Part shown: positions 3,843-41,767 of the stretch, one piece after another
How positions within the stretch are numbered: position 1 is the first letter of the stretch
Layout of the letters: every line of letters starts with the position of its first letter
NCBI GenBank assembly: GCA_046596625.1
Contig: JBKJMH010000044.1
Location: 1-56,699 of the forward strand
Direction of reading: 5' to 3'
Origin: Vicinamibacterales bacterium
GTDB lineage: Bacteria > Acidobacteriota > Vicinamibacteria > Vicinamibacterales > CAVVIG01
DNA length: 56,699 bases
Translations under genes and position numbers: made by a program
Notes under the pieces: generated by a model
Database searches by the model: none
What the model was told of the DNA's origin: nothing
What the model saw: the letters and a program-made list of their open reading frames with translations, nothing else

Positions 3843-3843
3843 G

Positions 3844-5274
3844 TCAGTTCGTGACGATGGCCTTGTCCAGCTTCAACGCCAGCTGCAGGTAGCTGCGTTC
3901 GTCTCGCGGGAATGCGACCGGATAGTGGCCCGTGTAGCAGGAACTGCAGTAGTGGCCGCTGCCTTCGCCGACGGCCCGCATCAACCCATCGAGGCTGAGG
4001 TACGCCACGCTGTCACAGTCGAGATAGGTGCGAATCTCGTCGAGCGTGTGCGTGGCCGCCATCAGTTCCGAGCGCCGCGGCGTATCGACACCGTAGAAGC
4101 ACGGCGAGATGGTCGGAGGGCAGCTGATGCGAACGTGGACTTCCTTCGCGCCGGCAGCGCGCACCATGCGAACAATCTTCCGGCTCGTCGTGCCTCGCAC
4201 CAGCGAGTCGTCCACGAGGATGACGCGCTTCCCGTCGAGAATGCTCCGGACCGGATTCAGCTTCACCTTCACGGCGAAGTGGCGGATGGACGACTGCGGC
4301 TGGATGAACGTACGGCCGACATAGTGATTGCGGATGAGGCCCATGCGAAGTGGGATGTTGGCTGCCTCGGCAAAGCCCATCGCTGCGCAGACGCCCGAGT
4401 CCGGAATAGGAACGACGACATCGGCATCGACGCGTTGCTCGGATGCCAGCACACGACCGAGGTTCGTCCGAACCTCGTTGACGCTCTTGCCGAAGACATA
4501 GCTGTCTGGACGCGAGAAGTAGACGTGCTCGAAGACGCAGTGCGCAAGCGGCGCCGGGCCGAACGGCTTCAGCGACTTGACGCCGCCGGCGCTGATGATC
4601 AGCAACTCACCAGGCTCGACGTCGCGCAGGTAGGTCGCGCCGATCAGGTCGAGGGCACAGGTCTCGGAGCAGACGACATAGGCCTCACCAAGACGACCCA
4701 GCGCAAGCGGCCTGAAACCGTGAGGGTCGCGCACCGCAATCATCCGGTCGGACGTCAGCATCAGGAACGAGAAGGCGCCCTGCAGTTGCGTCACCGAATC
4801 GACGACGGCATCTTCGACGCTCCGCCCCTTGGAGCGGGCGTAGAGATGCAGGACGACCTCGGTGTCGCTCCCCGACTGGAAAATAGAACCCTGGCTGACC
4901 AGCTCATTGCGCAGCGAGTCGGCATTGGTGAGATTCCCGTTGTGGCAGATGCTGAACTGACCGTGCGCGCAATCGATGAGGAACGGCTGCGCATTGGCCA
5001 GCCGGCTCTCGCCCGCCGTCGAGTAGCGTACATGTCCGATGGCCGCATGCCCCGGCAACTGCGACAGCGTCTGGCTGTCGAAGATGTCGGCGACGTAGCC
5101 CATCTGCTTCGTCACCCGCACGACACCGCCGTCGGAGACGGCAATGCCCGCGCTCTCCTGGCCGCGGTGCTGCAGCGCATACAGACCGAGGTAGGTCATG
5201 TTCGCGGACTCGTGGTGTCCGAAGATTCCGAAGACGCCGCACTCATCCCTGAACTTATCCAGCATTGACACCAT
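3844..5274 (-). CDS. purF: Amidophosphoribosyltransferase
   Basis: M(VS)MLDKFRDECGVFGIFGH (N-terminal nucleophile Cys), LQHRGQESAGIA, PRTase motif VILVDDSLVRGTTS and a C-terminal CSSCYTGHYP cluster. The start is 5274 or 5265; the upstream 100 aa of the track ORF are not PurF-like. Confidence 0.9.
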   Translation of the reverse strand: MVSMLDKFRDECGVFGIFGHHESANMTYLGLYALQHRGQESAGIAVSDGGVVRVTKQMGYVADIFDSQTLSQLPGHAAIGHVRYSTAGESRLANAQPFLIDCAHGQFSICHNGNLTNADSLRNELVSQGSIFQSGSDTEVVLHLYARSKGRSVEDAVVDSVTQLQGAFSFLMLTSDRMIAVRDPHGFRPLALGRLGEAYVVCSETCALDLIGATYLRDVEPGELLIISAGGVKSLKPFGPAPLAHCVFEHVYFSRPDSYVFGKSVNEVRTNLGRVLASEQRVDADVVVPIPDSGVCAAMGFAEAANIPLRMGLIRNHYVGRTFIQPQSSIRHFAVKVKLNPVRSILDGKRVILVDDSLVRGTTSRKIVRMVRAAGAKEVHVRISCPPTISPCFYGVDTPRRSELMAATHTLDEIRTYLDCDSVAYLSLDGLMRAVGEGSGHYCSSCYTGHYPVAFPRDERSYLQLALKLDKAIVTN

Positions 5275-5345
5275 TCTTCCGACGGAGCTGCGATTCAGGT
5301 TCTGACCGGACGCACCCGGCCAACGCACTGGCTGCTGCTGGGCGA

Positions 5346-6722
5346 CTAGGCCTTCGCGGCGGCCGAGTCGACCAATGGGGTCGCGCTCGGGATTGGCGGC
5401 CCGAACACACGGTCGAAGACGTGATCGACGTGCCGGAACTGCTCGTGCAGATCGAACGCCCGTTCGATCGCGGCGCTGGAGAGCACAGCGGTCACGTCCG
5501 AATCGGCGAGCAGCAACTTCTTGAAATCGGTCTGCTCGTGGAACGAGCGCATGGCGTTGCGCTGCACCCATTCGTAGGCCTGCTCCCGCGAAATGCCCTT
5601 CATCGCGAGTTCAAGCAGCACCGTGCCGGAGAACACCACACCGCGCGAACGGCCAAGGTTCTCGAGCATTCGCTCCGGGTAGACCACCATGCCACGGACG
5701 ATCCGCGTCATCCGGCGCAGCATGTGATCGACGGCGATGAAGCTATCGGGGATGATGACCCGCTCGACGGACGAGTGCGAGATGTCCCGCTCGTGCCACA
5801 GCGCAATATTCTCGAACCCGGCGTGGCAGTTCGCCCGAATCAGCCGGGCCATACCGACGATCTGTTCGCACCCGATCGGGTTGCGCTTGTGCGGCATGGC
5901 GGAAGAACCCTTCTGCCCCTTGGCGAACGGTTCCTCGATCTCGCCGATCTCGGTCTTCTGCAGTCCGCGAATCTCCAGGGCGAATTTCTCGAGCCCCGCC
6001 GCGGTGATAGCCAGGGCCGACAGGAGTTCAGCGTGTCGATCGCGCTGTACCACCTGCGACGCCACGGGGGCTGGCTGCAGCCCAAGCTGCTCGCACACCG
6101 CCGCCTCGATGGATGGAGGCAGGTGCGCGAACGTTCCCACTGCTCCGGACAGCTTGCCAACCGACACCACCACCCGCGCACGCTGCAGGCGCTCGATGTT
6201 ACGGGCCACCTCGGCGTACCATAGCGCGAGCTTGAGGCCGAGTGTCATTGGCTCGGCATGGACCCCGTGCGTGCGGCCGATCATCGGCGTCAGCTTGTGC
6301 TCGAAGGCGCGCTGGCGAATGGCCTCAGCCAGACCAGCCAGACCCTCGAGGATGACGTCGCACGCCTCACGCATCTGCAACGCCTGCGCGGTGTCGATAA
6401 CGTCAGACGAGGTCATCCCGAAGTGCATCCACCGCGCCGATTCGCCCACCTTCTCGGCGACTGCGGTGGTGAACGCAATCACGTCGTGCTGGGTGACCTG
6501 CTCGATTTCCTCGATGCGCGTGATGTCGAAGGCGCCGCGCTCGCGAATGTCCCGGGCGGCTTCGGACGGGACGATGCCGGCCGCGGCCATGGCATCGGCG
6601 GCGGCAGATTCAACCAGCAACCACGTCTCGTATCGACGCTGGTCGCTCCAGATCCGGCCCATTTCGGGGTGTGTGTAGCGCTGGATCACACGAAGTTCCT
6701 GCCGCGGAAGACACCATGACAC
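5346..6722 (-). CDS. purB: Adenylosuccinate lyase
   Basis: VIQRYTHPEMGRIWSDQRRYETWLLVE..., the fumarate-lyase signature GSSAMPHKRNP. The true start may be the GTG at 6689 rather than the ATG at 6722. Confidence 0.9.
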   Translation of the reverse strand: MSWCLPRQELRVIQRYTHPEMGRIWSDQRRYETWLLVESAAADAMAAAGIVPSEAARDIRERGAFDITRIEEIEQVTQHDVIAFTTAVAEKVGESARWMHFGMTSSDVIDTAQALQMREACDVILEGLAGLAEAIRQRAFEHKLTPMIGRTHGVHAEPMTLGLKLALWYAEVARNIERLQRARVVVSVGKLSGAVGTFAHLPPSIEAAVCEQLGLQPAPVASQVVQRDRHAELLSALAITAAGLEKFALEIRGLQKTEIGEIEEPFAKGQKGSSAMPHKRNPIGCEQIVGMARLIRANCHAGFENIALWHERDISHSSVERVIIPDSFIAVDHMLRRMTRIVRGMVVYPERMLENLGRSRGVVFSGTVLLELAMKGISREQAYEWVQRNAMRSFHEQTDFKKLLLADSDVTAVLSSAAIERAFDLHEQFRHVDHVFDRVFGPPIPSATPLVDSAAAKA

Positions 6723-6821
6723 CGAAGGACAAACCAGCCGACCTGTTCGGAGCCCGCGAAGGGCGCAGTCCAGCGTGATCCTCCAGAACTCTCGTGTCGT
6801 GTGTGTGTGTGGACTAGGCCG

Positions 6822-8093
6822 CTATTGTAAATCGAGACGCTCGCGCGGAACCTTCAAACCGTTCACATTCCCCAGCACTGTCGCCGAAAGCGCATCGTCA
6901 GCAAACAGGTCGGAGGCCACACGCTGCACGTCCTCGGGCGTGACCGCCTCGACGCCCTCGAGCGTTTCGTCAAGCCCGACCTGACGCTCGAAGTAGATCT
7001 CCTGACGGGCCACATGGGACATACGGCTGGCAGTGTTCTCCAGGCTCAGCATCAGGCTGCCCTTGAGGTGGTCCTTCGCGCGCTGCAACTCGGCCGGCGG
7101 CACGGGCGCGTGCTTCACGGTCCGCAGTTCATCGACCACCAGGTCGATGACCTCGCCCACCGCTTCGTTCGAACAGCCCGCATAGATCGTGAACGAGCCC
7201 GCGTCCCGGTAGGCGCTGAGACCCGAAAACACGGCGTAGGCCAGCCCGCGCTTCTCGCGCACGTTCTGGAAAAGTCGCGAGCTCATCGAGCCGCCCAGCA
7301 GCGTGTTGAGGACGTAAGTCGCGTAACGGTCGCGGTGGTCCTGGGCGTAGCTGTTGGTGCCGAGGCAGACGTGGCTCTGCTCGAGTTCCTTGTTGCGGAT
7401 CAGCACCTTCGGCACCACCCGGGGCGGCTCCTCGTGCACGGTCGCAGTGACCGCCTTGAGGTGTCCGAACCGCTCCTCGACCAACTTCTTCACGTGGTCA
7501 TGCTGGAGGTTGCCGACCGCGGAGATGATCAGGTTCTGGGGCGTGTAGGCGTCGCGGAAGTACGACTGCAGCGATTCGGACGTGAACGATTCCACCGTTT
7601 CGCGGGTGCCGAGAATAGGGCGGCCGAGTGGATGGTCTTCCCAGAACCCCTGCGTGAAGAGCTCATGAACCAGATCGTCAGGCGTGTCTTCCACCATCTT
7701 GATCTCTTCGACGACCACCTTCTTCTCCCGTTCGATGTCTTCGGGGTTGAAGGCAGGGTTGAGGACGAGGTCGGAGAGCACGTCGAGCGCCAGCGGCAGG
7801 TGCTCGTCGAGCACCTTGATGTAATAGCTGGCGTATTCCTTGGCCGTAAAGGCGTCGAGTTGCCCCCCGATCGAGTCGATGGCCTGAGCAATGTCCTCTG
7901 CGGACCTGGTCCCAGTCCCCTTGAAAAGCATGTGCTCCACGAAGTGCGCAATGCCGCCCCGTTCGGCACTTTCGTGCCTCGAACCGCGGGTCAGCCAGAC
8001 GCCGATGCTGATCGAACGAACCTGATTCATCGGCTCGGTCAGAACCCGGAGGCCGTTATCGAGTGCGTCGCGGACGATCAGTGAATTGGACAC
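6822..8093 (-). CDS. M16-family (pitrilysin/insulinase-like) zinc peptidase
   Basis: Inverted zinc motif HFVEHMLFKGT plus downstream Glu. The length and two-domain layout are typical of M16B. Confidence 0.8.
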   Translation of the reverse strand: MSNSLIVRDALDNGLRVLTEPMNQVRSISIGVWLTRGSRHESAERGGIAHFVEHMLFKGTGTRSAEDIAQAIDSIGGQLDAFTAKEYASYYIKVLDEHLPLALDVLSDLVLNPAFNPEDIEREKKVVVEEIKMVEDTPDDLVHELFTQGFWEDHPLGRPILGTRETVESFTSESLQSYFRDAYTPQNLIISAVGNLQHDHVKKLVEERFGHLKAVTATVHEEPPRVVPKVLIRNKELEQSHVCLGTNSYAQDHRDRYATYVLNTLLGGSMSSRLFQNVREKRGLAYAVFSGLSAYRDAGSFTIYAGCSNEAVGEVIDLVVDELRTVKHAPVPPAELQRAKDHLKGSLMLSLENTASRMSHVARQEIYFERQVGLDETLEGVEAVTPEDVQRVASDLFADDALSATVLGNVNGLKVPRERLDLQ

Positions 8094-8238
8094 GTGGATG
8101 GCTCACAGCGGAACGAGTTAACGATATCAGACGCGAAGCGGAGAACGCACCGCAAAGCATTGAGAATAAAGGAATTACATGCCAAGGCTCGAAATATAAC
8201 ACGCACTCGCCGGTTCGGGCAAGGTTCCGGCGCTACCG

Positions 8239-9384
8239 GTGGCTGTGCTGGACAGGCGGAGTAATATCAAGGCATTCTCGGAAGTAGCTCAGAACGTGGG
8301 AGATACCGTGTCCTCGCCCTCCAACCTTGCCGAACTCGACCTCGCCGATCTCGAAGCAGCCTTGAATGCGCGCGGCCTTGAACGCTTCCGGGCTCGGCAA
8401 GTGTTTGCCTGGATCTACAAGCGGGGTGTTACGGACGTCGAGGCGATGACCGACCTGCCACGTCAACTGCGGGCAGCGCTACTCGCCGACTTCACGATTG
8501 CCACGCCGCAGATTGCCTCGCGGGAACGCTCAACCGACGGGACCGAGAAATTCCTGATCAGACTCGCCGACGGGAAGCACATCGAGTCGGTCTTCATCCC
8601 CGATACGCCAGCCATGACCTTCTGCATCTCGACACAAGTGGGGTGCGCAATGGCGTGCGCGTTCTGCCTCACGGGCAAGATGGGCCTCGTGCGCAACCTC
8701 ACCGCAGGTGAGATCGCGGGGCAGGTGCGTGTGCTCGCCGGAGCCCTTGACCTGCGCGACAAGGCGTTCAACATCGTGCTCATGGGCATGGGCGAACCGC
8801 TGCACAACTACGATGCGGTGATGAAGGCGATGAGCATCCTCTGCGATGAACACGGCTTCCACTTGCCACCACGCCGGGTGACGCTCTCCACGGTTGGCCT
8901 GCTGCCAGCCCTCGAGAGGCTGGGCCGCGAAGCGTTGATGCCGAACCTCGCCATCTCCCTGCACGCCCCGACCGATGCGCAACGCGGCGAGCTCGTGCCC
9001 ATCAACCGGAAATACGGCGTCGCCGACATCATCGCCGCCTGCAAAGCGTTCCCCGTCCGCAAACGCAGCCGCATCACCTTCGAATACGTCATGCTGGCTG
9101 GCGTGAACGACTCTCCCGACGATGCCCGCAAGCTCGCCCGGTTGCTGTCCGGCGTGAAAGCCAAGGTGAACCTGATTCCGCTCAATGCGGCCGCCGGCAT
9201 CCCGTTCAATCGACCTGCGGACGACGTCGTCGACCGTTTCGCCCGCGTCCTGGCAGAGCGGGACGTGACCGTGTCGGTGCGGAAGAGCCGTGGACGCGAC
9301 ATCCGCGCGGCCTGTGGTCAGCTGATCGTGGAAGGGCCTGAGAGCTCACCCGCGCAGAAACTGGCGACGCTCGCCTTCCACTGA
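8239..9384 (+). CDS. rlmN: 23S rRNA/tRNA adenine-C2 methyltransferase (radical SAM)
   Basis: FRARQVFAWIYKRGV, radical-SAM cluster CAMACAFCLTG, GMGEPL, and late Cys in RAACGQL. The start codon is a GTG and the exact start is uncertain. Confidence 0.85.
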   Translation: MAVLDRRSNIKAFSEVAQNVGDTVSSPSNLAELDLADLEAALNARGLERFRARQVFAWIYKRGVTDVEAMTDLPRQLRAALLADFTIATPQIASRERSTDGTEKFLIRLADGKHIESVFIPDTPAMTFCISTQVGCAMACAFCLTGKMGLVRNLTAGEIAGQVRVLAGALDLRDKAFNIVLMGMGEPLHNYDAVMKAMSILCDEHGFHLPPRRVTLSTVGLLPALERLGREALMPNLAISLHAPTDAQRGELVPINRKYGVADIIAACKAFPVRKRSRITFEYVMLAGVNDSPDDARKLARLLSGVKAKVNLIPLNAAAGIPFNRPADDVVDRFARVLAERDVTVSVRKSRGRDIRAACGQLIVEGPESSPAQKLATLAFH

Positions 9385-9421
9385 CGCGGCAGGTTCTCCG
9401 TTGTGCCGAACCTCGTCGCAC

Positions 9422-10735
9422 TCAGTTGAGGACGACGCCGCACACGGTGGGGGCGGTGTCGGTCAACCGGACACGCACCCACTCGTTCCGCCGACGACCT
9501 GATGGGATACGGACTTTCAGGTAGTTGCCCGTCACGGCCAGGGTGCCGTCCTCGATCGTCAGCGCGCGGTGCACGGTGTCTCGCTGCGACTCGAGGAATC
9601 TCCGCGTCAGGCGCGCGCCGATCTCGCGCAGTTGCCTCCCCCGCTCCTTGACGACAACACCGGAGGGCCGGTCGGCCATCCGGGAGGCGGCAGTCCCGGG
9701 CCGGTCGGAGTAGGGGAAGACGTGAAGGTGCGTCAGCGGCGCAGCGTCAAGGTACGTCGTCAGTTCCTGGAAGTCGGCCTCGGTTTCACCGGGGAACCCA
9801 ACGATCAGGTCCGATCCGATCGACGCATTCGGAATATCCCGCCGGATCGTGTCGACCAGTCGCGCGTAGAAGGCGACGTCATAGGGACGTCGCATGGCGG
9901 CGAGCATGCGCGGGCTGGCGTGCTGGAGTGGAAGGTGAAAGTGCGGTGCGAAGCAGTTCGAATCCCTGACCAGTTCGACGACGCGCTCGGAGCAGTCCAT
10001 GGGCTCGAGGGAACTGATCCTGAAAAGGACGTGCGGCTCGCCGTTTTCGCGCACGTCACCGAAAGCGTCTCGAAGCGCCATCAGGAGGTCGGGCAGCACA
10101 GCCGGCGACTGGAGGTCGCGTCCGTACGAACCCAGATGTACGCCAGTCAGGGCAACTTCCCTGAAGCCGGACGCGACGATGCGCGTCACCTCGGCCAGCA
10201 CCTGTTCTATCGGCACGCTGCGCGGAGTGCCGCGTGTTTCGGGAATGATGCAATACGAGCAGGGTTGAGCGCAGCCCGTCTGGACGCGCAGCGTGAAGGC
10301 CGTCCGACCCGCGACGCCCGGCTCGATCGCGGAGCCGCACCCGCCGTCACCATCGCCGAACCGTTCCGCCGTAGTGAGGCTCGCGAGGGCATCGTCCTCA
10401 GCAACCAGCGCGCGGACGAATGAGAGCACCTGCGGCTTGTCGTCGTTGCAGACGACGCGAGCCACATTCGGCAACCCCGCAACCTGCACCGGCTCGCGAG
10501 TGGCGTAGCACCCGGTCACGACAATTTTCGCGGAGGGGTTGAGGCGGGCAATGCGGCGAATGGTTTGCCTTCCGCCCTGATCCGCGGTCGCCGTGACGGA
10601 GCAGGTGTTGACGACCACGACATCCGCAGCCTCCGCGGGCGCGGGCCTGGCGCCAGCCGCCAGAAACTGCTCCTCGAACCCGAGCGAGTCCGACTGGTTG
10701 ACGCGGCAGCCGAAGGTGACGATGGCGTACTTCAT
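9422..10735 (-). CDS. MiaB/MtaB-family radical-SAM tRNA methylthiotransferase (MtaB-like)
   Basis: MKYAIVTFGCRVNQSDS...VVVVNTCSVT...VTGCYA (UPF0004 cluster), radical-SAM CAQPCSYCIIP, and a C-terminal TRAM-like end. The start is set to ATG 10733-10735. The 686-aa track ORF reads through the 3' end of purD. Confidence 0.8.
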   Translation of the reverse strand: MKYAIVTFGCRVNQSDSLGFEEQFLAAGARPAPAEAADVVVVNTCSVTATADQGGRQTIRRIARLNPSAKIVVTGCYATREPVQVAGLPNVARVVCNDDKPQVLSFVRALVAEDDALASLTTAERFGDGDGGCGSAIEPGVAGRTAFTLRVQTGCAQPCSYCIIPETRGTPRSVPIEQVLAEVTRIVASGFREVALTGVHLGSYGRDLQSPAVLPDLLMALRDAFGDVRENGEPHVLFRISSLEPMDCSERVVELVRDSNCFAPHFHLPLQHASPRMLAAMRRPYDVAFYARLVDTIRRDIPNASIGSDLIVGFPGETEADFQELTTYLDAAPLTHLHVFPYSDRPGTAASRMADRPSGVVVKERGRQLREIGARLTRRFLESQRDTVHRALTIEDGTLAVTGNYLKVRIPSGRRRNEWVRVRLTDTAPTVCGVVLN

Positions 10736-31417: not shown

Positions 31418-32164
31418 ATGTACAAGCTTGTGCTGCTCCGCCACGGCGAAAGCACGTGGAACAAGGAAAACCGCTTCACCGGCTGGACCGATGTCGACCT
31501 CTCGGACAAGGGCCGCGAGGAAGCGGCTGAAGCCGGCCGCCTGTTGCAGGCTGGCGGCTACGTGTTCGATCAGGCCTATGTCTCGTTGCTGAAGCGCGCC
31601 ATCCGCACGTTGTGGATCACACTCGACCAGCTCGATCAGATGTGGCTGCCGGTCGAGAAGAGCTGGCGCCTCAACGAACGTCATTACGGCGCCCTGCAGG
31701 GGCTGAACAAGGCGGAGACCGCGGCCCTGCACGGCGACGCGCAGGTGCTGGTGTGGCGGCGCAGCTACGACATCCCGCCGCCGCCGCTCACGCTCGATGA
31801 CGAACGCCATCCGGCGAAGGACCCGCGTTACGCCGGCCTCGACGCGGCGGACCTGCCGCTGACCGAGTCGCTGAAGGAAACGGTCGCACGGTTCCTGCCC
31901 TACTGGCACGGCACCATCGCGCCGGCCATCACCAGCGGCAAGCGCGTGATCGTTGCGGCGCACGGCAACAGCCTGCGTGCCCTGGTGAAGTACCTCGACG
32001 ACGTCTCGGAGTCGAAGATCGTCGAGCTCAACATTCCGACCGGTATCCCGCTGGTGTACGAACTGGACGCCGACCTGAAGCCGATTCGCCATTACTACCT
32101 CGGTGACGCGGCCGCGGCCGCCGCCGCCGCGGAACGCGTCAAGCAACAGGCGGCCTCCCGCTGA
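31418..32164 (+). CDS. gpmA: 2,3-bisphosphoglycerate-dependent phosphoglycerate mutase
   Basis: [29 protein letters not shown]...[12 protein letters not shown]...[10 protein letters not shown]. Confidence 0.95.
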
Positions 32165-32170
32165 ACGGTT

Positions 32171-32193
32171 CGCGCGGACGCCACGTCCGCGCG
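32171..32193 (+). terminator. Perfect 10-bp GC hairpin after gpmA with no U-tract (possible terminator or attenuator)
   Basis: CGCGCGGACG-cca-CGTCCGCGCG is read directly from the sequence. It lies 7 nt after the gpmA stop and 31 nt before the channel-gene ATG. No T-run follows. Confidence 0.4.
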
Positions 32194-32224
32194 GCGCAGC
32201 CTTCCCTCGAGGACTCGCTGCTCG

Positions 32225-33949
32225 ATGCGGTCATATATCGTCTACGTGCTCGGGATCGTCGCGCTGGTCATCCTGACGAGCGCGACCGGCTTCTACGCGG
32301 CTGAAATCGGCACGAACCAGAATCTCGACAGCTACGGCGATGCCCTGTGGTGGGCGATCGTCACCGTCACCACAATCGGCTATGGCGACATCTTCCCCGT
32401 TACCGTGGCGGGACGGTTCGTCGGCGCCTTCCTGATGTTCGCCGGCATCGGTGCGCTCGGCGTGTTCACGGCGTCCATCGCCGCCTACCTCATCAAGTTC
32501 GATCGGCTCGATGCCCTGCGCGTCAGGGGTATGCATCGCCACGTGGTGATCTGCGGCCTCGGCTCGACCGGTGCGCTGCTGACGCAAGCCTTCCAGCGCG
32601 ATGGCTACACGGTGCTGGCGATCGAGAAAGCCGAGGACAACCCGCGCCTCGACGCGGCTCGCGAGGCGGGGGCGGTCGTGCTGATTGGCGATGCCTCGCG
32701 GACGGAGGTCCTGCAACGGGCCCGAGTCGATAGGGCCGCGCACATCGTGATCGTCGCCGGCGCCGATGCGACGAACGTGGAGATTGCGGCGGCAGCGCGT
32801 GCCCTGGTGCACGACTCGGCGGCCAGCGTCTCGTGCGCGGCGCAGATCGAAGACCCTGAACTGTGGTACGCCCTGCGCAGCTGGGACGTCGGCACCCAGG
32901 ACCGCGTGAGGCTCGAGTTCTTCAACGTGACCGAGCTCGGTGCCCGCGCGCTGCTTGCGCGCCATTCGCCCTTCGCGGGAGTCGCCGACGCCGCTGCCGC
33001 CCCACCTCGCGTGCTCATCGTCGGCTCCGGCGCGCTCGGCCAGCACCTGATCGGGCACATGGTGCGGCAGTGGCAGGACGTCGAAGGCGAGACCAAGGCG
33101 CCCCTGCCGATCGCGCTGGTCGATGCTGACGTCGACCGCGTGACCCAGGACCTGCATCATCGCCACCCCGAGTTGCGCACACTCGCCGTAATCACCCCGT
33201 ATGCCCTGGATCTGCGTTCGACCACATTCCAGCGCGGCGCGTTCCTGTTCGACGACACCGGCCTCTGCGCGGTCACGCATGCATATGTCTGCGTCGAGGA
33301 CGAAGGGCTGGCCCTCTCCACGGCGCTGCTGCTGCTGAATCATCTCCGCCAGTACGGCGTGCACGTGATGGTGCGAACGAACCGCGAGGCCGGCCTGGCG
33401 GCGCTGCTGCGCGCGGTCGGCACCCAGGGTTCACGCGGCGTCTCCCACCTGCACGTGTTCAGCCTGCTCGAGCAGGCCTGCCGCCCGGAGTTCGTGCTTC
33501 GTGGCACCAATGAAGTGCTCGCGCGGGCGCTGCACCAGGACTACCTGTCACAGGCATCCCGCCATCAGAATCCGTCGGCTGTTCCGTGGGATGATTTGCC
33601 CGTCGACCTCAAGGAGTCGAATCGACGACAGGCCGATCACATCGCGACCAAGCTCGAAGCGGTGAGGTGCCACATCGTGCCGCTCACCGCGCTCGAAGGC
33701 GATGCCTTTGCGTTCGCTCCAGCCGAAGTGGAGCACCTGGCCGAGATGGAACACGAACGCTGGGTGGCGGAGCGCCGCGCGCAGGGCTGGACGCGCGGCC
33801 CTCGTGATCCGATACAGAAGACCAACCCCAGTCTGGTCTCCTGGGCCGAACTCGATGAGCCGGCTCGCGAGATGAACAGGGGTTCCGTGCGTCGACTGCC
33901 GTTCTTCCTGAATCGCGCGGGCTTCACCGCACACCGTGACAACGCATGA
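32225..33949 (+). CDS. 2TM K+ channel fused to an RCK/TrkA-N domain, a second Rossmann-like domain and tandem C-terminal RyR-like repeats
   Basis: Pore TVTTIGYGD (nt 32360-32386) is flanked by two TM helices. The RCK domain has VVICGLGSTGALL...IGDAS. The second glycine-rich loop is VLIVGSGALGQHL. The C-terminus has LARALHQDY...PWDDLPVDLKESNRRQADHI and VEHLAEMEHERWVAERRAQGWTRGPRD..KTNPSLVSWAELDEPAREMNR, matching the RyR-domain pattern E.LAe..HE.W....GW.yG......P.LvpW.eL. Confidence 0.75.
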   Translation: MRSYIVYVLGIVALVILTSATGFYAAEIGTNQNLDSYGDALWWAIVTVTTIGYGDIFPVTVAGRFVGAFLMFAGIGALGVFTASIAAYLIKFDRLDALRVRGMHRHVVICGLGSTGALLTQAFQRDGYTVLAIEKAEDNPRLDAAREAGAVVLIGDASRTEVLQRARVDRAAHIVIVAGADATNVEIAAAARALVHDSAASVSCAAQIEDPELWYALRSWDVGTQDRVRLEFFNVTELGARALLARHSPFAGVADAAAAPPRVLIVGSGALGQHLIGHMVRQWQDVEGETKAPLPIALVDADVDRVTQDLHHRHPELRTLAVITPYALDLRSTTFQRGAFLFDDTGLCAVTHAYVCVEDEGLALSTALLLLNHLRQYGVHVMVRTNREAGLAALLRAVGTQGSRGVSHLHVFSLLEQACRPEFVLRGTNEVLARALHQDYLSQASRHQNPSAVPWDDLPVDLKESNRRQADHIATKLEAVRCHIVPLTALEGDAFAFAPAEVEHLAEMEHERWVAERRAQGWTRGPRDPIQKTNPSLVSWAELDEPAREMNRGSVRRLPFFLNRAGFTAHRDNA

Positions 33950-35844
33950 GCAGCGAACACCCGTCTTCCCCACACCCGTCGCACCGGCATCGGCGACGCA
34001 GGCGCGTTCGACGGCCAGGCACTGGCCAGGCGCCTGGTCCGCTGCCGCTCGTGGTGGGCGTCACCGGTCACCGTGACCTTCGCCCCGAGGACCTGCCCGC
34101 ACTCGAAGGACTGGTGCGGCGCGTCATCAACGACGTGAAGGACGCGCACCCGCACACCCCGCTGTTGCTGCTATCGCCGCTCGCGGAAGGGAGCGACCGG
34201 CTGGTCGCTCGCGTCGCCCTCGAAGGTGGCGTGCGCCTGGTGGTACCGCTGCCGCTGCCGCTCGAACTGTACGAGCAGGACTTCGTCAGCGACGAGTCGC
34301 GTGCCGAGTTCCGCCGTCTGCTTGGCCTCGCCGAAAGTTCCTACGTGCTGCCGCTCATGCACGGCAACACCGACGAGGGCATCCGACAGTACGGTGACCA
34401 GCGGAACCGTCAGTACGCCCAGGTCGGCGCTCTCATCGCCAGGCAGAGTCAGGTGTTCCTCGCTCTCTGGGACGGCGCAAGCGATGCCGGCAACGACAAG
34501 GTCGGCGGAACCGCGGAAGTTGTCCGGTTCCGACTCGACGGGGTACCGCCAAGCTACGAGCCGACGTCGGCCAGCCCGCTCAGCGACTCGAGCAGCGGTT
34601 CGGTCTATCACCTGATCACGCCGCGCATCGGTCAGCCGCTGCCGCGGAAGGCGCTGACCTCGGAACTCGTGCTGCCCACTCGGCAGTCCGCCGCGTCGTT
34701 CGATGAACTTCAGGGGTGGATGGATCAGTTCAACGAAGATGCCTTACACTTCGACGCGTCGATGGCGCCGGCCCGCCTCACGAGCAAGTCGTATCTCCTG
34801 AACACCACGGAAGACGCGGTCGACGCGACAGCGCGCTCGCTGCCCGCCTCCGCACAGATGACCATGGAGCGTTACGCCGTGGCCGACGCCCTGGCGCTCC
34901 ATTTCGCCAGCCACGCCAGGGCTGCATCGAAGAAGCTCTTTCTCTGGGTGTTCGTGTCGGCGCTGTTCTTCAACCTGTTCCACTCGTTGCCGCACCCCCA
35001 CATTGCGGAACACCCGTCGCTCGGCGAGCGGCTCATCGCCGTTCCGTGGCTGCTGCTACTCTTCCTCGCATCGTCTATCGTCGCGAGCTACTGGATCCAT
35101 CGCGAGGCGACCGAGCAGGATTACCAGAACAAGCACCAGGACTATCGGGCACTGGCCGAAGCCCTGCGCATCCAGTTCTTCTGGCAGGTCGCCGGCGTGC
35201 AGGGTGATGTCGCCGACCATTACCTGCGGAAGCAGCGTGGCGCACTCGAGTGGATTCGCAACGCGCTCCGGGCCTGGGATGCCGAGTCGTCGGCGAGCGA
35301 GGCGCGCGAGGCGGTCGGTGGGTTCGTGCCGGACCGGCTGGCCTACGTCGCCAGGAACTGGGTCAGCGAGCAGCGCAACTACTTCGCCTCGAAGGCGCGC
35401 CGTGAACAGGCGACGCTCGAAGAGGAAGAGAAGAAGATCGAGTGGCTGGTGCGCATCAGCGTGGTGTTGGCCCTGCTCCTCGCAGTGGTGCTGACGGTCC
35501 CGCTCATCATTCCCATCCACGCGCTCGAAGGGGTGAAGCACTGGGTCGAAGAGCCGTGGACGCACGGCATCGTGATGATCGTCATCGTGACGCTGGCCGT
35601 GGTGGCCGGCCTGCGCCACGGCTACAACCAGCAGATGGCGCGCTCCGAGCATGCGAAGCAGTTCGGGCGCATGAGCGAGCTCTTCGATGCGGGGCAGACG
35701 CACCTGTCGGCGCAACTGGACGCCGGACACGTGGAACAGGCGGCGGCGCTGCTGCGCGAGCTGGGCCAGGAAGCGCTGGAGGAGAACGGTGACTGGGTGT
35801 TGCTGCACCGCGAGCGTCCGCTCGAAGTGCCGCACTCGGGCTGA
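33946..35844 (+). CDS. SLOG-like (LOG/YpsA/DprA-type Rossmannoid) N-terminal domain fused to two 2TM modules (SLATT-like)
   Basis: The ATG overlaps the channel-gene stop (ATGA). The N-terminal domain has VVGVTGHRDL, SPLAEGSDRLVA, VVPLPLP and KVGGTAEVV (compare the LOG-type GGxGTxxE). TM pairs lie at about aa 330-385 and 500-556. Each pair is preceded by an amphipathic Y..A......K/R helix (RYAVADALALHFASHARAASKK; RNYFASKARREQATLEEEEKK). Confidence 0.6.
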   Translation: MSSEHPSSPHPSHRHRRRRRVRRPGTGQAPGPLPLVVGVTGHRDLRPEDLPALEGLVRRVINDVKDAHPHTPLLLLSPLAEGSDRLVARVALEGGVRLVVPLPLPLELYEQDFVSDESRAEFRRLLGLAESSYVLPLMHGNTDEGIRQYGDQRNRQYAQVGALIARQSQVFLALWDGASDAGNDKVGGTAEVVRFRLDGVPPSYEPTSASPLSDSSSGSVYHLITPRIGQPLPRKALTSELVLPTRQSAASFDELQGWMDQFNEDALHFDASMAPARLTSKSYLLNTTEDAVDATARSLPASAQMTMERYAVADALALHFASHARAASKKLFLWVFVSALFFNLFHSLPHPHIAEHPSLGERLIAVPWLLLLFLASSIVASYWIHREATEQDYQNKHQDYRALAEALRIQFFWQVAGVQGDVADHYLRKQRGALEWIRNALRAWDAESSASEAREAVGGFVPDRLAYVARNWVSEQRNYFASKARREQATLEEEEKKIEWLVRISVVLALLLAVVLTVPLIIPIHALEGVKHWVEEPWTHGIVMIVIVTLAVVAGLRHGYNQQMARSEHAKQFGRMSELFDAGQTHLSAQLDAGHVEQAAALLRELGQEALEENGDWVLLHRERPLEVPHSG

Positions 35845-35847
35845 GTG

Positions 35848-35871
35848 CCCCCGGCGCCTGCGCCCGGGCGG
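35848..35871. terminator. Imperfect GC-rich hairpin in the 36-nt gap between convergent genes (possible bidirectional terminator)
   Basis: In gcccccggcgcctgcgcccgggcggg, a stem of about 9 bp with two bulges can be drawn by hand. There is no U-tract. Confidence 0.25.
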
Positions 35872-35880
35872 GCAGGGAGC

Positions 35881-37260
35881 CTAGGCCGACGGGGTCTGGG
35901 CCGCGGCCAGCCAGGCGGCCGTCACTTCCGACGCGGTCGAGAAGCGGGCGTTGGCGTCGGACAGGATGCAGCGCATGATCATCGCCGCAGCCTCGGCCCC
36001 GAGGTCGGGGCGCTCGGTGGCGACGTCGGACGGCTTGGTCATGAGCATGCGGCCGAGCAACTGCGGAAATGACTCCGCTGGATACGGCGGCCGGCCGGTG
36101 GCCATGTAGTACATCAGGGCGCCGATCGTGAACACGTCGGCACGCTGATCCGCCGGGTTGCCCATCAGCAGCTCCGGCGCCACGTACGACAGCTCGTGCG
36201 GTGCGGCCTGTCCACGCAGCGTGGCCTCGTTCATCGTCGACAGCAGATCCTGCATGCCGCCGATGCCCGCGCTCGAAATCGCGAGGCGCTCTTCCTTCGC
36301 TGGTTCCCGCACCACCCGGATGATCTCGGGGTGAAGCCCCGAGATGAAGCCGCCGTGCACGTGCACCGCCGCCGTCGCCTCGCTCAACTCGCGCACGAAC
36401 TGCGTCAGCGTCTTGATGGCCAGTCGTCCGTCCGAGCGGACGAGTTCGCCGAGGCTCACGCCAGCCAGCAGGTCGGTGACCACGTACATCATCTCCGCCG
36501 TCTCGCCGAAGTCGCGAACGTGGATGATGTTCGGGTGCATCACTTGCAGGGCGCGCGCCTCGCGCAGGAACCGCGCGCGAATGGCTTCCTTGTTGTCCTT
36601 CTCGGTCGGCCGGTAGACGCGGACCGCAACCGGGCTGCCGAGCATCCGATGCTCGCCGGCGTAGACGACGCTGCCAAATCGACCGATGGCGAGCACTTTC
36701 GTCAGGTCGTAGTTGCCCACGACCAGAGGCGATTCCCTGGACGGTTCGAGCAAGGCCGGCGGAGGTGCAGCCGCTGCGGGTACGGCCGCAGGGGCCACGA
36801 GAGCGAGAGCCGCGGGCGCGCCGCCGCCGTCGGGAATCAGGTCGCCGTCGGTGCCGGGCCGGCGCAGGTGTGCATTGACCCCCTGGACGAGACGCTCGAT
36901 GTGCTGGTCAATCGGCTGAGCAATGGCATCGAACCAGTGCTGCGAGCTGATGAAATACTCCATCGTGCGGGTCGGCATCACGTTCTCGATGCGGACCGGC
37001 ATGAGCGACAGACCCTTGTGGACGGCGCGCTCGACCTCGCGCTGGACCTGGACCGACTTGTTGGAGGCTTCGCTGAAGACCAGCAGCATGAGCCGCGAGC
37101 CTTCGATGCCGTCGATGATCGACTCGGCCCACGGCACGCCGGGCACGATGTCGCGTGGGGCAATCCAGCACGGAATACCGCGCTGCTCGAGCCCCGCGCA
37201 AATCGCGTTCGAGACAACCACGTCCTTCGACGCGTAACTGATGAAGACCACGTGCGCCAT
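35881..37260 (-). CDS. TIR domain fused through an Ala/Pro linker to a degenerate Ser/Thr-kinase-like (pseudokinase) domain
   Basis: The TIR domain has HVVFISYASKD...GIPCWIAPRD...LMLLVFSEASNKSVQVQREVERA (candidate catalytic Glu in REVE) and ...LMPVRI. The kinase fold has IGRFGSVVY, HPNIIHV, YVAPELL and DVFTIGALMYYMATGRPPY. Its catalytic motifs are altered: VAVR (K to R), ISGLHPEII in place of HRDLKPxNI, and SAG in place of DFG. The start is set at the ATG at 37258-37260 because the longer ORF would overlap the upstream terminator. Confidence 0.75.
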   Translation of the reverse strand: MAHVVFISYASKDVVVSNAICAGLEQRGIPCWIAPRDIVPGVPWAESIIDGIEGSRLMLLVFSEASNKSVQVQREVERAVHKGLSLMPVRIENVMPTRTMEYFISSQHWFDAIAQPIDQHIERLVQGVNAHLRRPGTDGDLIPDGGGAPAALALVAPAAVPAAAAPPPALLEPSRESPLVVGNYDLTKVLAIGRFGSVVYAGEHRMLGSPVAVRVYRPTEKDNKEAIRARFLREARALQVMHPNIIHVRDFGETAEMMYVVTDLLAGVSLGELVRSDGRLAIKTLTQFVRELSEATAAVHVHGGFISGLHPEIIRVVREPAKEERLAISSAGIGGMQDLLSTMNEATLRGQAAPHELSYVAPELLMGNPADQRADVFTIGALMYYMATGRPPYPAESFPQLLGRMLMTKPSDVATERPDLGAEAAAMIMRCILSDANARFSTASEVTAAWLAAAQTPSA

Positions 37261-37290
37261 GAGGAAAGCGCCCCGATCATATCGCATCGA

Positions 37291-37329
37291 AAACAAAAAA
37301 AAGGCCGCCGGGTTGAACCCGGCAGCCTT
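37291..37329 (-). terminator. Rho-independent terminator downstream of the AGE-STAS gene
   Basis: The minus strand reads AAGGCUGCCGGG-uucaa-CCCGGCGGCCUUUUUUUUGUUUU. This is a 10-bp stem with one mismatch followed by a U-run. Confidence 0.75.
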
Positions 37330-37356
37330 CTCTCGGTTCTTCTGCGAAGAACGCTG

Positions 37357-39585
37357 TTAGTCGACGAAAGTGAGGCTTTCGCCGAATTCGGTCGCGTTGA
37401 GCGAGTCCTTGACTCCCTGACTCGCGCCGATGACCTGAACGTCCTCATCGGTCCGCAGCTTCTGCTTCCCGAAGATGAGAGCGCGGATTGCGGCCGGCGT
37501 CAGCGTCTTGAGGTCCTTCACGCGAATGATGAGCGTCTCGGGCTGTGCGGCGATGACTTCCTGCAGCTTGGCCTGCAGAGTCGGCAGTGCCATGTGGTCA
37601 GCATCGCCAGCGAGGGTCAGCGTGGCCACGCCCTTGTCCACCGTGCAGTGGGCGGAGAAGTGGGTCAGTCCTTCGGTCGGCGCGATTCGGACCACGATCT
37701 TCACCTGGCCATCCGCCTCCGGGATGGTGACGGTGAGGTTCGCCGCATCGAAGTCGTTGTATTCTTTGCCGTCAACCGTGACCGACTCGATCTTGATGCT
37801 GCCCTTCGGCAGCATGTCAGGCGCCACGCGCAGAATGTTGTCCTTGAACCCGCCCGGCTTCGGCTTGAAGTGCAGGTCGAGCGGCTGCTTGGTGATCAGC
37901 AGGTTGGTGTAGACCGCCGCCAGGTAGCACAGCTCGAACGAGTGGTAGCCGCTCATCGAGTGGCTGCCCTTGTTGCGTTCGGTGCCAAGCAGGTACGGCA
38001 GGCCGTTGGCCAGCACGTTGAAGTAGACCGCGCCCGAATCGTGGTCGAGGAAGAAGGCGCTGTAGAACGCCGACGACTCGCGCGCCTGCTTGAGGTACTC
38101 CGGCTTCTTCAGCGAGCCGTGCAGGATCAGGTAGGCCAGGATGCCCTGTTCCTGCTGCCACCATGCCTTACGGTCGTGGAAGGCGAAGCGGTGAATCGAC
38201 TGGCCCTCCGGCAGGGCGCGCTCCACAACGTCGTACCAGCCGCCGCGCTGCGGGTCGCCGCCGTGCTTGGGCATAAGACCGGCGATCTTCTCGGCCAGCA
38301 CCACGTAGCTGTCGTCCTGCTTCGCATTCACCATGCGCATCAGATTCCAGGCGATCTTGAGGTTGTGACCGACCACCGCGCGGTTCTGCTGCCAGCCCCA
38401 GGTACGGTCGGCGCTCCAGTCCTCGTGGAACTTCTCCTGGACGAAGGCGCTGTTGTCGTAGTCCGGGAAGCGCGTCGCGATGGTGGTTGCCGTGTCGATG
38501 AGCATCTCGAGGTGCTCGGGTTCGTTCGTCGCCAGCGCCAGGTTGATCAGGTACGCCGGGGCGTGATCGCCGACGGAATTCCAGTTCTTCTTGCCGCAGT
38601 TGCGACCGAGTGACTCGGCCTTCGGATTGAACGTGACCGGGTCGATGTGCGAAAAGTAGCCGCCGCCTTCGTAGTCGCGGTAGTACTTGTTGAACATGTT
38701 CAACGTGCGGTCGATGTCCTTGCGGATCTTCGGGTCGCCGGTGATGCGGAAGGTCTGGGTCGGGCCGGCCAGCGCGTAAATCTGCTCGTAGGCCGGGATG
38801 GCGTCCCAGTCGTCACCAAACTCCGACGACAGCAACTTGCGCTCGTGCGCGGCGGCATTGCTGGAGCGGCGCATGCCGGGCACTTCCGCCATGTCCGAGT
38901 TCAGAACCTTCTTGCCCTTCTGCTCGGCAAAGTCGACGGCGTGGTACCAGTAGCAGGTGTTCTCGACCGTGTCGACCGCGCAGAAGTGCTCGCGCAGGTA
39001 GTCGCTGCCCTTCTCGGCGGCTTCGAGGAAGCGTTCGTCGCCGGTCAACAGGTAGGCCGACGCGAAGCCGAAGATCAGGCGCGAGATGGTATCGGTCTCC
39101 TGGCGGGTCGCTTCGATTTTGCGACCGTAGAGGTCGAGCATCGTGCGGTAGTTGCGGTAGTCGACCGGGCCGTCGCCGAACTGGGCGCGGAAGTAGAAAT
39201 TGCCCAGTTCCTGGATCTGGTGAACCCACCAGTCCGGCTTTTCGAACACGAATTCCGTCGGGCCGCGGCCCACGAACACAATGTGCTGCGCCTCGAGTGC
39301 CATCGGCACGTCGGGGTAGAACACACCGTACGAGTATAGGAACCGGCCGGTCTGCAGCATGTCGCGCATCTGCCCGGTGCAGTCGATATACGACTCTCCG
39401 AGGTTGCGCGCCAGCTCGGCGTAGCACGCGCCCGAGTAGCGAATCTGGAATTCCCGGCCATCCGACGTGGCCACGCGGAAGCCGTTACGGTCGGCATCCA
39501 CGCCGGTGACGTAGCCGGCAACCGTATCCGAGAATGCAAACCCTGTCCCTGTCGTCGTATCCGAAAGCGAGTTCTTCACGTCCAT
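37357..39585 (-). CDS. N-acylglucosamine-2-epimerase (AGE)-superfamily (alpha/alpha)6 protein with a beta-sandwich and a C-terminal STAS domain
   Basis: The AGE-type features are ISRLIFGFASAYLLTGDERFLEAAEKGSDYL, GGYFSHID and VGHNLKIAWNLMRM (the GH..E/K.aW pattern). The C-terminal roughly 100 aa are STAS-like (VATLTLAGDADHMALPTLQAKLQEVIAAQPETLIIRVKDLKTLTPAAIRALIF). Confidence 0.6.
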   Translation of the reverse strand: MDVKNSLSDTTTGTGFAFSDTVAGYVTGVDADRNGFRVATSDGREFQIRYSGACYAELARNLGESYIDCTGQMRDMLQTGRFLYSYGVFYPDVPMALEAQHIVFVGRGPTEFVFEKPDWWVHQIQELGNFYFRAQFGDGPVDYRNYRTMLDLYGRKIEATRQETDTISRLIFGFASAYLLTGDERFLEAAEKGSDYLREHFCAVDTVENTCYWYHAVDFAEQKGKKVLNSDMAEVPGMRRSSNAAAHERKLLSSEFGDDWDAIPAYEQIYALAGPTQTFRITGDPKIRKDIDRTLNMFNKYYRDYEGGGYFSHIDPVTFNPKAESLGRNCGKKNWNSVGDHAPAYLINLALATNEPEHLEMLIDTATTIATRFPDYDNSAFVQEKFHEDWSADRTWGWQQNRAVVGHNLKIAWNLMRMVNAKQDDSYVVLAEKIAGLMPKHGGDPQRGGWYDVVERALPEGQSIHRFAFHDRKAWWQQEQGILAYLILHGSLKKPEYLKQARESSAFYSAFFLDHDSGAVYFNVLANGLPYLLGTERNKGSHSMSGYHSFELCYLAAVYTNLLITKQPLDLHFKPKPGGFKDNILRVAPDMLPKGSIKIESVTVDGKEYNDFDAANLTVTIPEADGQVKIVVRIAPTEGLTHFSAHCTVDKGVATLTLAGDADHMALPTLQAKLQEVIAAQPETLIIRVKDLKTLTPAAIRALIFGKQKLRTDEDVQVIGASQGVKDSLNATEFGESLTFVD

Positions 39586-39625: not shown

Positions 39626-41767
<2,142 letters not shown>

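Follow-up and report, generated by a model that had tools for sequence, protein, structure and literature searches.

What do three neighbouring genes of a soil acidobacterium do together, when one encodes a TIR domain joined to a kinase-like domain, another a SLOG domain followed by transmembrane (TM) hairpins, and the third a K+ channel ending in ryanodine receptor (RyR) domains? This question is raised by positions 32225-37260 of contig JBKJMH010000044.1 from a Vicinamibacterales bacterium (assembly GCA_046596625.1), a complete contig of 56,699 bp (positions 1-56699) which was analysed as a whole and is called the window hereafter. The three open reading frames (ORFs) were all found where a preliminary description of this DNA had placed them: gene A (32225-33949, forward strand, 574 amino acids), gene B (33946-35844, forward strand, 632 amino acids) and gene C (35881-37260, reverse strand, 459 amino acids, identical to a protein held at NCBI). 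As had also been described, the A stop and B start codons overlap in an ATGA (33946-33949, forward strand), taken as translational coupling, and the convergent stop codons of B and C are separated by a GC-rich gap of 36 nt (35845-35880), both features being read directly from the sequence. The locus is interpreted here as Thoeris-like TIR signalling with two new elements, a pseudokinase as presumed sensor and, as presumed second output, a co-translated K+ channel that bears RyR domains. To the reading as a whole, a TIR second-messenger module with two membrane outputs, we give an even chance.

The linkage of the TIR and SLOG-4TM genes was followed in a gene-neighbourhood survey, a check proposed in the preliminary description, which was anchored on gene B with one genome per species and yielded 79 loci from more than ten phyla, including Acidobacteriota, Ignavibacteriota, Bacteroidota, Armatimonadota, Eremiobacterota, Abditibacteriota, Planctomycetota, Verrucomicrobiota, Gemmatimonadota and several proteobacterial classes. 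Of these 79 loci, 45 gave a TIR hit with a hidden Markov model (HMM) seeded on the window TIR, and the sampled hits were confirmed as TIR_2 by Pfam; the expected co-occurrence was thus borne out for TIR, and for the channel-RCK-RyR gene in a few loci (L010, L036, L049, L050 and L066). When the loci flanked by at least 7.5 kb on both sides were taken alone (n=43), a TIR lay within 3 kb of the B homologue in 27 and at 3-8 kb in 5 more, these TIRs being concentrated beside B and mostly on the same strand. At about 16 loci the TIR is approximately 50% identical to that of the window and directly abuts B, and the sensor parts C-terminal to the TIR vary from locus to locus (TM plus extracytoplasmic domain, SH3, TPR, NB-ARC/STAND or WD40). 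A single ORF of 1618 amino acids in a metagenome-assembled genome (MAG) of Gimesia (Planctomycetota; L051, within 1744-9716) reads TIR-NB-ARC-TPR-SLOG-SLATT and is a Rosetta-stone fusion of the TIR and SLOG-4TM functions. The conserved core of these loci is TIR plus SLOG-4TM, and the gene linkage is not due to chance.

The exact trio, including the ATGA overlap, is syntenic in metagenomic relatives at 88% and 61% identity in B, as the synteny check suggested beforehand would have it, and a relative at 77% shows the same layout apart from assembly frameshifts; the same overlap is seen in L080, L081, L083 and L084. Synteny of the complete trio is restricted to one acidobacterial clade. Across phyla it is the TIR and SLOG-4TM core that is found; the pseudokinase belongs to one clade, and RyR domains occur in 7 of the 79 loci.

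The product of gene A, described beforehand as a K+ channel with RCK and tandem RyR-like repeats, was confirmed as such by Pfam, by its filter sequence, by fold comparison and by HMM. Pfam assigns Ion_trans_2 (5e-17), TrkA_N (4.4e-18, residues 107-211) and RyR (6.9e-13; 49.1 bits, the gathering score being 27.4). The selectivity filter TTIGYGD (residues 49-55; 32369-32389, forward strand), read from the translation, is inside the Ion_trans_2 match, and the first RCK domain (32531-32944, forward strand), identified by TrkA_N, retains its GxGxxG dinucleotide-binding motif as CGLGSTG at residues 110-116. The next stretch (33002-33484, forward strand), left blank by Pfam, shows the beta-alpha alternation of a Rossmann lobe in the AlphaFold2 (AF2) model and carries VGSGALG at residues 266-272; the model (predicted local distance difference test, pLDDT, 84.7) matches GsuK and TrkA over its full length, with NAD- or ADP-bound GsuK as its best match in the Protein Data Bank (PDB; E about 1e-12). 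Because the full-length match to GsuK covers two RCK domains, this stretch is predicted to be a second RCK lobe. With its TxGYGD filter and cytosolic RCK, gene A encodes an RCK-gated K+ channel of the GsuK/MthK type. Like GsuK of Geobacter (PDB 4gx0, 4gx1, 4gx2, 4gx5), which was crystallised with NAD and ADP, it has a pore and two tandem RCK domains per subunit; the two differ in that their identity is 14-17% and that GsuK lacks RyR and is not known to be partnered with TIR or SLOG.

The C-terminal part of the channel is a member of PF02026 (RyR), as shown by its score above gathering, its similarity in sequence and fold to the R12 domain of animal ryanodine receptors and its two repeats. Repeat 1 (residues 430-484; 33512-33676, forward strand; iterated HMM, 4.6e-18) reads ALH437QDY440 ... 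NP ... ESN466R, and repeat 2 (residues 501-568; 33725-33928, forward strand; Pfam RyR, HMM 9.9e-29) reads MEH510ERW513 ... KTN534P ... EMN551R. In fold comparison this part of the model matches human RyR3 848-1055 (R12) with an E value of 4.8e-7 and a TM-score of 0.56 on the target, and in phmmer searches repeat 2 matches the R12 structures of RyR1 and RyR3 at E 1e-13 to 1e-16. With 93 clusters the A family is a small one, and the tandem arrangement of two RyR repeats is common to every homologue recovered with the HMM iterated from the window; in repeat 1, H437, W455, N466 and R467 are invariant among 40 homologues.

A concrete role can be predicted for this module because RyR-domain proteins bind or cleave the cyclic ADP-ribose (cADPR) isomers 2'cADPR and 3'cADPR. 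Phage proteins of PF02026 bind and sequester these molecules or cleave them, the cleaving type being named RyDEP (Lopez Rivera et al., PMC13232231, May 2026 preprint), and the recognition of cyclic ADPR isomers by RyR-domain proteins is of nanomolar affinity (PMC13232231). In the 1.7 Å structure of RyDEP, H75 and D117 form the catalytic dyad, W78 stacks on the adenine and H100 is placed at the phosphates; all four residues are stated to be conserved in animal R12 domains, for which direct cADPR binding is still a hypothesis (PMC13232231). The equivalences with gene A were drawn through RyR1 R12 and a B. thetaiotaomicron-type repeat and not from a direct alignment with RyDEP, whose likely PDB entry, 35tm_A, gave a weak match to the A RyR (E 0.09). 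On this basis, the equivalents of the catalytic His (H437, H510) and of the stacking aromatic residue (Y440, W513) are kept in both repeats, being invariant or nearly so among the 40 homologues. The equivalents of the catalytic Asp are Asn in both repeats (N466, N551) and in every channel-bearing homologue of the residue alignment, and the equivalent of H100 is likewise Asn in the channel RyR repeats, RyR1 repeat 2 having the same variants. Since both Asp equivalents are Asn, hydrolysis is unlikely and a binder rather than a hydrolase fits; with its dyad incomplete, the channel RyR is not a RyDEP-type glycosidase and, judged by its residues, would be at most a binder.

The likeness to the phage RyDEP and sponge proteins therefore consists of the same family, the conserved equivalents of the ligand-contacting His and aromatic residues and the genetic tie to TIR signalling, whereas RyDEP is a small phage-encoded homodimer that counters Thoeris and the window RyR is host-encoded, with two repeats on a single polypeptide that also forms a K+ channel. 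With animal R12 the A repeats share sequence, fold and, in RyR1 repeat 2, the same NP...SNR variants, but animal R12 sits on a Ca2+ release channel of 5,000 residues and gene A encodes a small prokaryotic K+ channel.

RyR domains recur in the neighbourhood of B homologues in four architectures. The channel-RCK-RyR form is found in the window clade and in L010, L036, L049, L050 and L066, as well as in L085, a locus anchored on gene A; L039 carries a TrkA_N-RyR protein with no recognisable pore; in L051 an nSTAND-NTPase of 1041 amino acids ending in two RyR repeats is encoded immediately upstream of the fusion gene. The fourth form consists of standalone RyR proteins of about 100-120 amino acids, located beside a TIR gene in L066 (3623-3922) and between the RCK-RyR and SLOG-4TM genes in L039 (7127-7498). 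These standalone proteins have the complete H/W/H/D set and, from these residues, may be host-encoded signal-degrading enzymes; RCK-RyR proteins without a channel retain the Asp in repeat 2. The channel-fused RyR would accordingly act as a non-hydrolysing ligand sensor, and the standalone copies may degrade the signal. Furthermore, the longest contigs of 14 channel-bearing members of the A family are equal in size to those of B homologues, which suggests that these members and B homologues share contigs, and TIR genes were present in three of the four A-anchored loci sampled. These four comprise L085, where a short TIR and a Tll0287-HAMP protein accompany the channel and a divergent SLOG-TM protein; L086, with a standalone SLOG and two TIR proteins; L087, with an extra RyR protein, ARPP-1 and TIR-WD40; and L088, with a NUDIX gene directly upstream. 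Channel-less TrkA_N-RyR genes were also noted in L088 (6540-6953, adjoining the NUDIX hydrolase gene) and L087 (12267-13277, near ARPP-1 and TIR-WD40), so that NUDIX, ARPP-1 and TIR-WD40 are further neighbours of bacterial RyR domains with links to NAD/ADPR metabolism. In the literature searched, no description was found of a bacterial K+ channel-RyR fusion or of RyR domains in host TIR loci, and the sole biochemical precedent for the RyR part is that of the phage proteins that counter defence.

Gene C unites TIR_2 (1.6e-21) and Pkinase (9.5e-22) by Pfam, with the TIR domain at residues 1-135 (36856-37260, reverse strand) and the kinase-like domain at residues from about 180 to 459 (35884-36723, reverse strand; aligned with PknE and PknB). 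The TIR had been proposed to retain a candidate catalytic Glu, and this proposal was strengthened: Glu75 (37036-37038, codon checked), within QREVERAV, aligns with the helix-C catalytic Glu region of the TIR of TIR-STING and is kept in the five TIR orthologue sequences inspected and in the aligned close relatives. The domain thus appears to retain the Glu needed for NAD+ chemistry, as a putative catalytic residue. In the kinase-like domain, which had been called a pseudokinase beforehand, the catalytic residues are replaced: compared with PknE and PknB, the beta-3 VAIK Lys is Arg (VAVR214V), HRD is ISG, the loop Asn is Ile and DFG is SAG. With these four positions changed, an active Hanks-type Ser/Thr kinase was rejected as an identity for gene C. 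Because the same substitutions are found in a relative at 57% identity, the domain is, to judge from its residues, a maintained pseudokinase which keeps its fold and not a decaying gene. A search of the 79 B-anchored loci with the kinase part (tblastn) gave no pseudokinase domain (0/79), and the kinase was therefore rejected as a conserved partner of B, being confined to one acidobacterial clade. No bacterial TIR-pseudokinase fusion is described in the literature searched, of which the SLOG/SLATT paper of Burroughs et al. (2015) was not part.

Gene B is a member of a large family without annotation (more than 1,448 clusters of homologues). B itself has no significant match in Pfam, NCBIfam or PADLOC, searches of PDB sequences with B and with a profile of 39 sequences returned nothing real, and its domains were resolved only by scanning the homologues one by one with Pfam and by structure prediction. 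The AF2 model (pLDDT 87.5, predicted TM-score 0.86) has a SLOG region with pLDDT above 90 and four TM helices. The N-terminal domain (residues about 35-245; 34048-34680, forward strand), with motifs GVTGHRD, LAEGSDR, ALWDG and VGGT, gave YpsA (2nx2) as best Foldseek match (E 5.6e-5, TM-score 0.64 on the target), followed by ShosA, DprA, TM1055 and type-II LOG, and the SLOG family YAcAr (PF10686) is matched weakly by 19 of the 39 homologues (best E 5.5e-5, none shown above gathering; B itself unmatched). The SLOG-like assignment of the preliminary description is thus upheld, the model placing this domain in the Rossmannoid fold that the SLOG superfamily shares among YpsA, DprA and LOG. The Glu of GGxGTxxE, the catalytic Glu of LOG-type enzymes, is not conserved in the VGGTA motif of the B family; this comparison of motifs favours a sensor over an enzyme.

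The two 2TM modules, described beforehand as SLATT-like, are also seen in the model. The first hairpin with its flanking helices (34843-35193, forward strand; TM1 331-345, TM2 366-383) is followed by an invariant DYRALAE helix, and the second (35329-35721, forward strand) contains TM3 (504-522) and TM4 (542-556). Of the 39 homologues, 23 match DUF4231 weakly (best 1.8e-4) and 6 match SLATT_3, also weakly, and the region of the second hairpin in the L051 homologue matches SLATT_1 at 2.9e-5 (24.5 bits, the cut-off being 26.3). The protein ends in a highly conserved tail, EENGDWVLLHRERPLEVPHSG (35776-35841, forward strand), in which W617, L620, H621, R622, R624, P625 and P629 do not vary among the 39 homologues, which come from several phyla. 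Nowhere else is the SLOG-4TM family as strongly conserved as in this tail (residues 611-632, EENGDWVLLHRERPLEVPH), which could be a docking or gating element. In a Woeseiaceae MAG (L053:8001-10433) the SLOG domain of the B homologue is tandemly duplicated ahead of the TM region.

Among known systems, the pairing of C and B resembles a putative Thoeris type listed as TIR plus 'SLOG and 4TM' (Yirmiya et al., bioRxiv 10.64898/2025.12.03.692087, Tables S1 and S2), in which a TIR stands beside a SLOG and four-TM effector; the type is known here by its description, and by architecture (SLOG fold, four TM, adjacent TIR) the window locus fits it. Of the trio, for which the preliminary description knew of no described system, the pairing of TIR with 'SLOG and 4TM' was already listed; nothing was found in the literature searched for the channel-RyR or the TIR-pseudokinase. 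The window differs from the listed type in that the TIRs of the latter fall in a different TIR cluster and have no CWIAPRD motif, the window motif (WIAPRD, CWIA) being absent from the portion of Table S1 that was searched, and in that no kinase, channel or RyR component is mentioned for it. A homology search with the Nitrospira TIR of Table S1 gave six hits, all on short contigs with no informative gene nearby; in the best one (L089) the hit is flanked by UDPGP and, upstream, by a fragment of an unrelated gene.

Type I Thoeris, in which the TIR protein ThsB signals through 3'cADPR to the SIR2-SLOG protein ThsA, has in common with the window a TIR generator and an effector with a SLOG receptor, whereas the output of the window is a 4TM membrane module instead of SIR2 and the SLOG of B is nearest to YpsA and DprA. 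TIR plus SLATT constitutes type VII, with cADPR as signal, and TIR plus ion channel type X (10.64898/2025.12.03.692087). These two types (ThsH and ThsK respectively, the signal of the latter being unknown) likewise tie a TIR signal to a SLATT effector or an ion channel, and two effectors under one TIR in a single operon have a precedent in ThsH and ThsI; compared by description, they differ from the window, where the SLATT-like modules are duplicated and fused to SLOG and the channel is GsuK-like with two RCK domains and RyR. The coupling of a TIR gene to an effector gene, by which Thoeris is recognised, is present in the 36-nt spacing of the window, in the 27 of 43 loci given above and in the L051 fusion.

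Built on the domain identities, the linkage and the conserved putative ligand-contacting residues, a mechanism can be proposed in which C would be both sensor and signal generator. A cue acting on the dead kinase domain would drive assembly of the TIR, and in other lineages the cue would act on a TPR, STAND or extracytoplasmic domain instead. The assembled TIR would turn NAD+ into an ADPR-derived signal such as a cADPR isomer, to be read by the YpsA-like SLOG of B, whereupon the two SLATT-like hairpins would oligomerise or open and render the membrane leaky. The same signal may be read by the tandem RyR of the co-translated channel A, which would gate K+ flux together with the NAD/ADP-type RCK ring. 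The expected outcome would be K+ flux and loss of membrane potential, leading to growth arrest or abortive infection. In a stronger version, which we regard as possible and no better than tentative, the tandem RyR of A would be a true receptor for a TIR-made cADPR isomer whose binding gates the channel, and the standalone RyR proteins of sister loci would be off-switches which degrade the signal. The cADPR-ryanodine receptor axis would then have a counterpart in prokaryotes, from which it may even have evolved.

Should this mechanism hold, one TIR signal would act on the membrane in two ways, through a SLOG-gated pore and through a K+ channel, a TIR sensor would be built on a pseudokinase, and an RyR domain would serve the host as a receptor and not the phage as a counter-defence protein. 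A direct action of cADPR on ryanodine receptors has been debated for decades. A channel of 574 residues in a TIR operon would provide a small expressible system for direct measurements of nucleotide binding by an R12-like domain and of how such binding is coupled to gating. As for the 'SLOG and 4TM' candidates without effect in E. coli, they may depend on native partners (channel, Tll0287-HAMP) or on triggers other than phage, and a physiological role, if that is the true one, would make this an early case of TIR-derived nucleotides in ordinary bacterial signalling.

Several observations weigh against the proposed module. Neither of the two 'SLOG and 4TM' operons tested in E. coli, one from Streptomyces sp. 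GKU 895 and one from Ca. Nitrospira nitrosa, protected the cells against phage (10.64898/2025.12.03.692087). The ThsA and ThsB models of PADLOC are unmatched, with no hit for B and a best ThsB score of 0.026 for the TIR of C (the best generic TIR model being SAVED_TIR at 1.3e-6), and the SLOG of ThsA is not in the top 50 fold matches of B; the Thoeris-like designation of the preliminary description is thus sustained by the TIR/SLOG-4TM linkage and the L051 fusion and not by the curated models. The SLATT assignment of B depends on sub-threshold Pfam hits, and the Asn in place of the phosphate-contacting H100 in the A repeats means that ligand specificity may differ. About a quarter of the fully flanked loci have no TIR, and L010 (60% identity) has the channel and SLOG-4TM with no TIR within 8 kb. 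The glycogen and glycolysis neighbours and the vertical inheritance in the clade are unlike a defence island; moreover, no member of the B family was recovered from 72,556 plasmids or from 50,697 phage genomes, and the 2.9 million contigs of IMG/VR yielded just two partial matches. On these counts, a mobile setting or a defence island was rejected. Regarding the loci devoid of TIR, they carry DUF4062-NACHT-TPR (L012), AAA_35-TPR, patatin or an extra SLATT protein, and DUF4062 is reported as a TIR-like NADase (bioRxiv 10.64898/2026.05.01.722283).

Some of these points suit a second reading in which the wiring is the same and the role physiological, a stress, redox or metabolic cue controlling K+ flux or membrane potential through a TIR-derived nucleotide. 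This reading is a credible minority view. It accounts for the stable chromosomal place beside glgC-eno-gpmA and GlcNAc-2-epimerase-STAS/isoamylase, for the lack of adjacent mobile or defence genes and of plasmid or phage members in the B family, and for the failure of the two tested 'SLOG and 4TM' systems to defend; a haem-type Tll0287-like/HAMP sensor recurs in seven loci, and the TIR partners with TM and extracytoplasmic domains or with a cyclase domain resemble environmental sensors. However, the B family is spread patchily over more than ten phyla and its partners (STAND NTPases, TPR, WD40, patatin, peptidases) change fast, as is usual for conflict systems, a pore-forming 4TM effector would be odd for routine homeostasis, and all characterised bacterial systems of TIR with SLOG, SLATT or a channel are anti-phage (10.64898/2025.12.03.692087). 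We lean slightly towards a role in conflict or defence over a physiological trigger. The same survey cautions that in unverified types the TIR may be an NADase effector (10.64898/2025.12.03.692087), and here the TIR could deplete NAD+ while the RCK ring, and possibly SLOG and RyR, react to falling NAD+ or rising linear ADPR, the membrane changes being a consequence of metabolic collapse. The NAD- and ADP-bound GsuK structures that best match A, the conserved GxGxxG of RCK1 and the TIR-STAND/TPR fusions (L051, L063), which are also an Avs-like effector architecture, would agree with this; a SLOG sensor-pore fusion beside or fused to TIR across phyla is rather the architecture of a signal with its receptor, and the nanomolar recognition of cyclic ADPR isomers by RyR proteins also speaks for a signal, so that depletion as the main function seems quite improbable.

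A further explanation concerns the RyR domain itself, which might be an off-switch or buffer that sequesters or hydrolyses the TIR product and thereby sets a threshold or terminates the signal, the channel then being gated by the RCK ring alone. The phage RyR glycosidases and sponges for 2'/3'cADPR, the standalone proteins with full H/W/H/D sets beside TIR or SLOG genes in L066 and L039 and the repeat 2 Asp kept by channel-less RCK-RyR proteins are precedents for such a function. In the window and the aligned channel-bearing homologues, on the other hand, Asn at both Asp equivalents makes hydrolysis unlikely, the strictly conserved fusion to a channel gating ring suggests that binding is coupled to gating, and buffering and gating are not mutually exclusive; an off-switch in place of a receptor is therefore considered doubtful. 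As for the three genes being accidental neighbours with unrelated functions, the opposite strand of C, its absence from L010 and the lack of a curated family for B would permit it, but even in distant phyla the TIR genes cluster at no more than 3 kb from the B homologue, TIR and SLOG-4TM are joined in a fusion ORF, A and B share the ATGA overlap and RyR recurs in independent architectures. The L051 fusion, the recurrence of RyR and the TIR proximity counts effectively refute accidental adjacency, which is left with a negligible chance. Both TIR and SLOG assignments are supported by the profile and structure searches that the preliminary description had named as a check. A TIR-derived signal read at two membrane outputs is the preferred reading.

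Other partners were encountered in the survey. In L012 (9777-10667; Ignavibacteriota) a 6TM Ion_trans protein starts right after the SLOG-4TM stop codon, with the DUF4062 (TIR-like)-NACHT-TPR gene upstream, which suggests that the pairing of a channel with SLOG-4TM arose more than once. A gene for a protein of about 290 amino acids, arranged as TM-Tll0287-like-TM-HAMP, was noted at L036:5200-6069, L049:678-1568, L050:5108-5995, L052:6396-7265, L059:6177-7292, L066:4960-5886 and L085:12070-12960. This Tll0287-like (CxxCH, haem-type sensor)-HAMP gene adjoins the TIR, the channel or SLOG-4TM in these seven loci of different lineages and is absent from the window; its product is a candidate fourth component or input sensor.

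Concerning the surroundings of the locus, the preliminary description had placed it between core carbon-metabolism genes with no mobile genes nearby, and this was found to be so: it is set between glgC-eno-gpmA and genes for an N-acetylglucosamine (GlcNAc)-2-epimerase-STAS protein and an isoamylase, this position is stable in relatives down to 55-61% identity, and no defence or mobile-element genes are adjacent. Rfam gave no match at or above a family's gathering score over the full length of the window. Within 31900-37700 there is no promoter-like site, and the sole terminator-like site, a hairpin at 37334-37296, belongs to the gene upstream of C and counts against a longer TTG start for C. 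In the gap of 60 nt between the gpmA stop and the A start, a hairpin with a perfect GC-rich stem of 10 bp (CGCGCGGACG-CCA-CGTCCGCGCG, 32171-32193) and no T-tract may be a terminator or attenuator dividing the channel operon from the glycolytic genes. On the other side, 37357-39585 and 39626-41767 (both reverse strand) hold the genes of a 742-amino-acid GlcNAc-2-epimerase-like protein with a C-terminal STAS domain and of an isoamylase/GlgX. This pair is not seen in the Abditibacteria loci and adjoins the locus in every acidobacterial relative (L010, L080-L085), even when the upstream genes differ or the TIR is missing (L010); its adjacency, which might also reflect a functional tie by way of STAS, is probably clade synteny.

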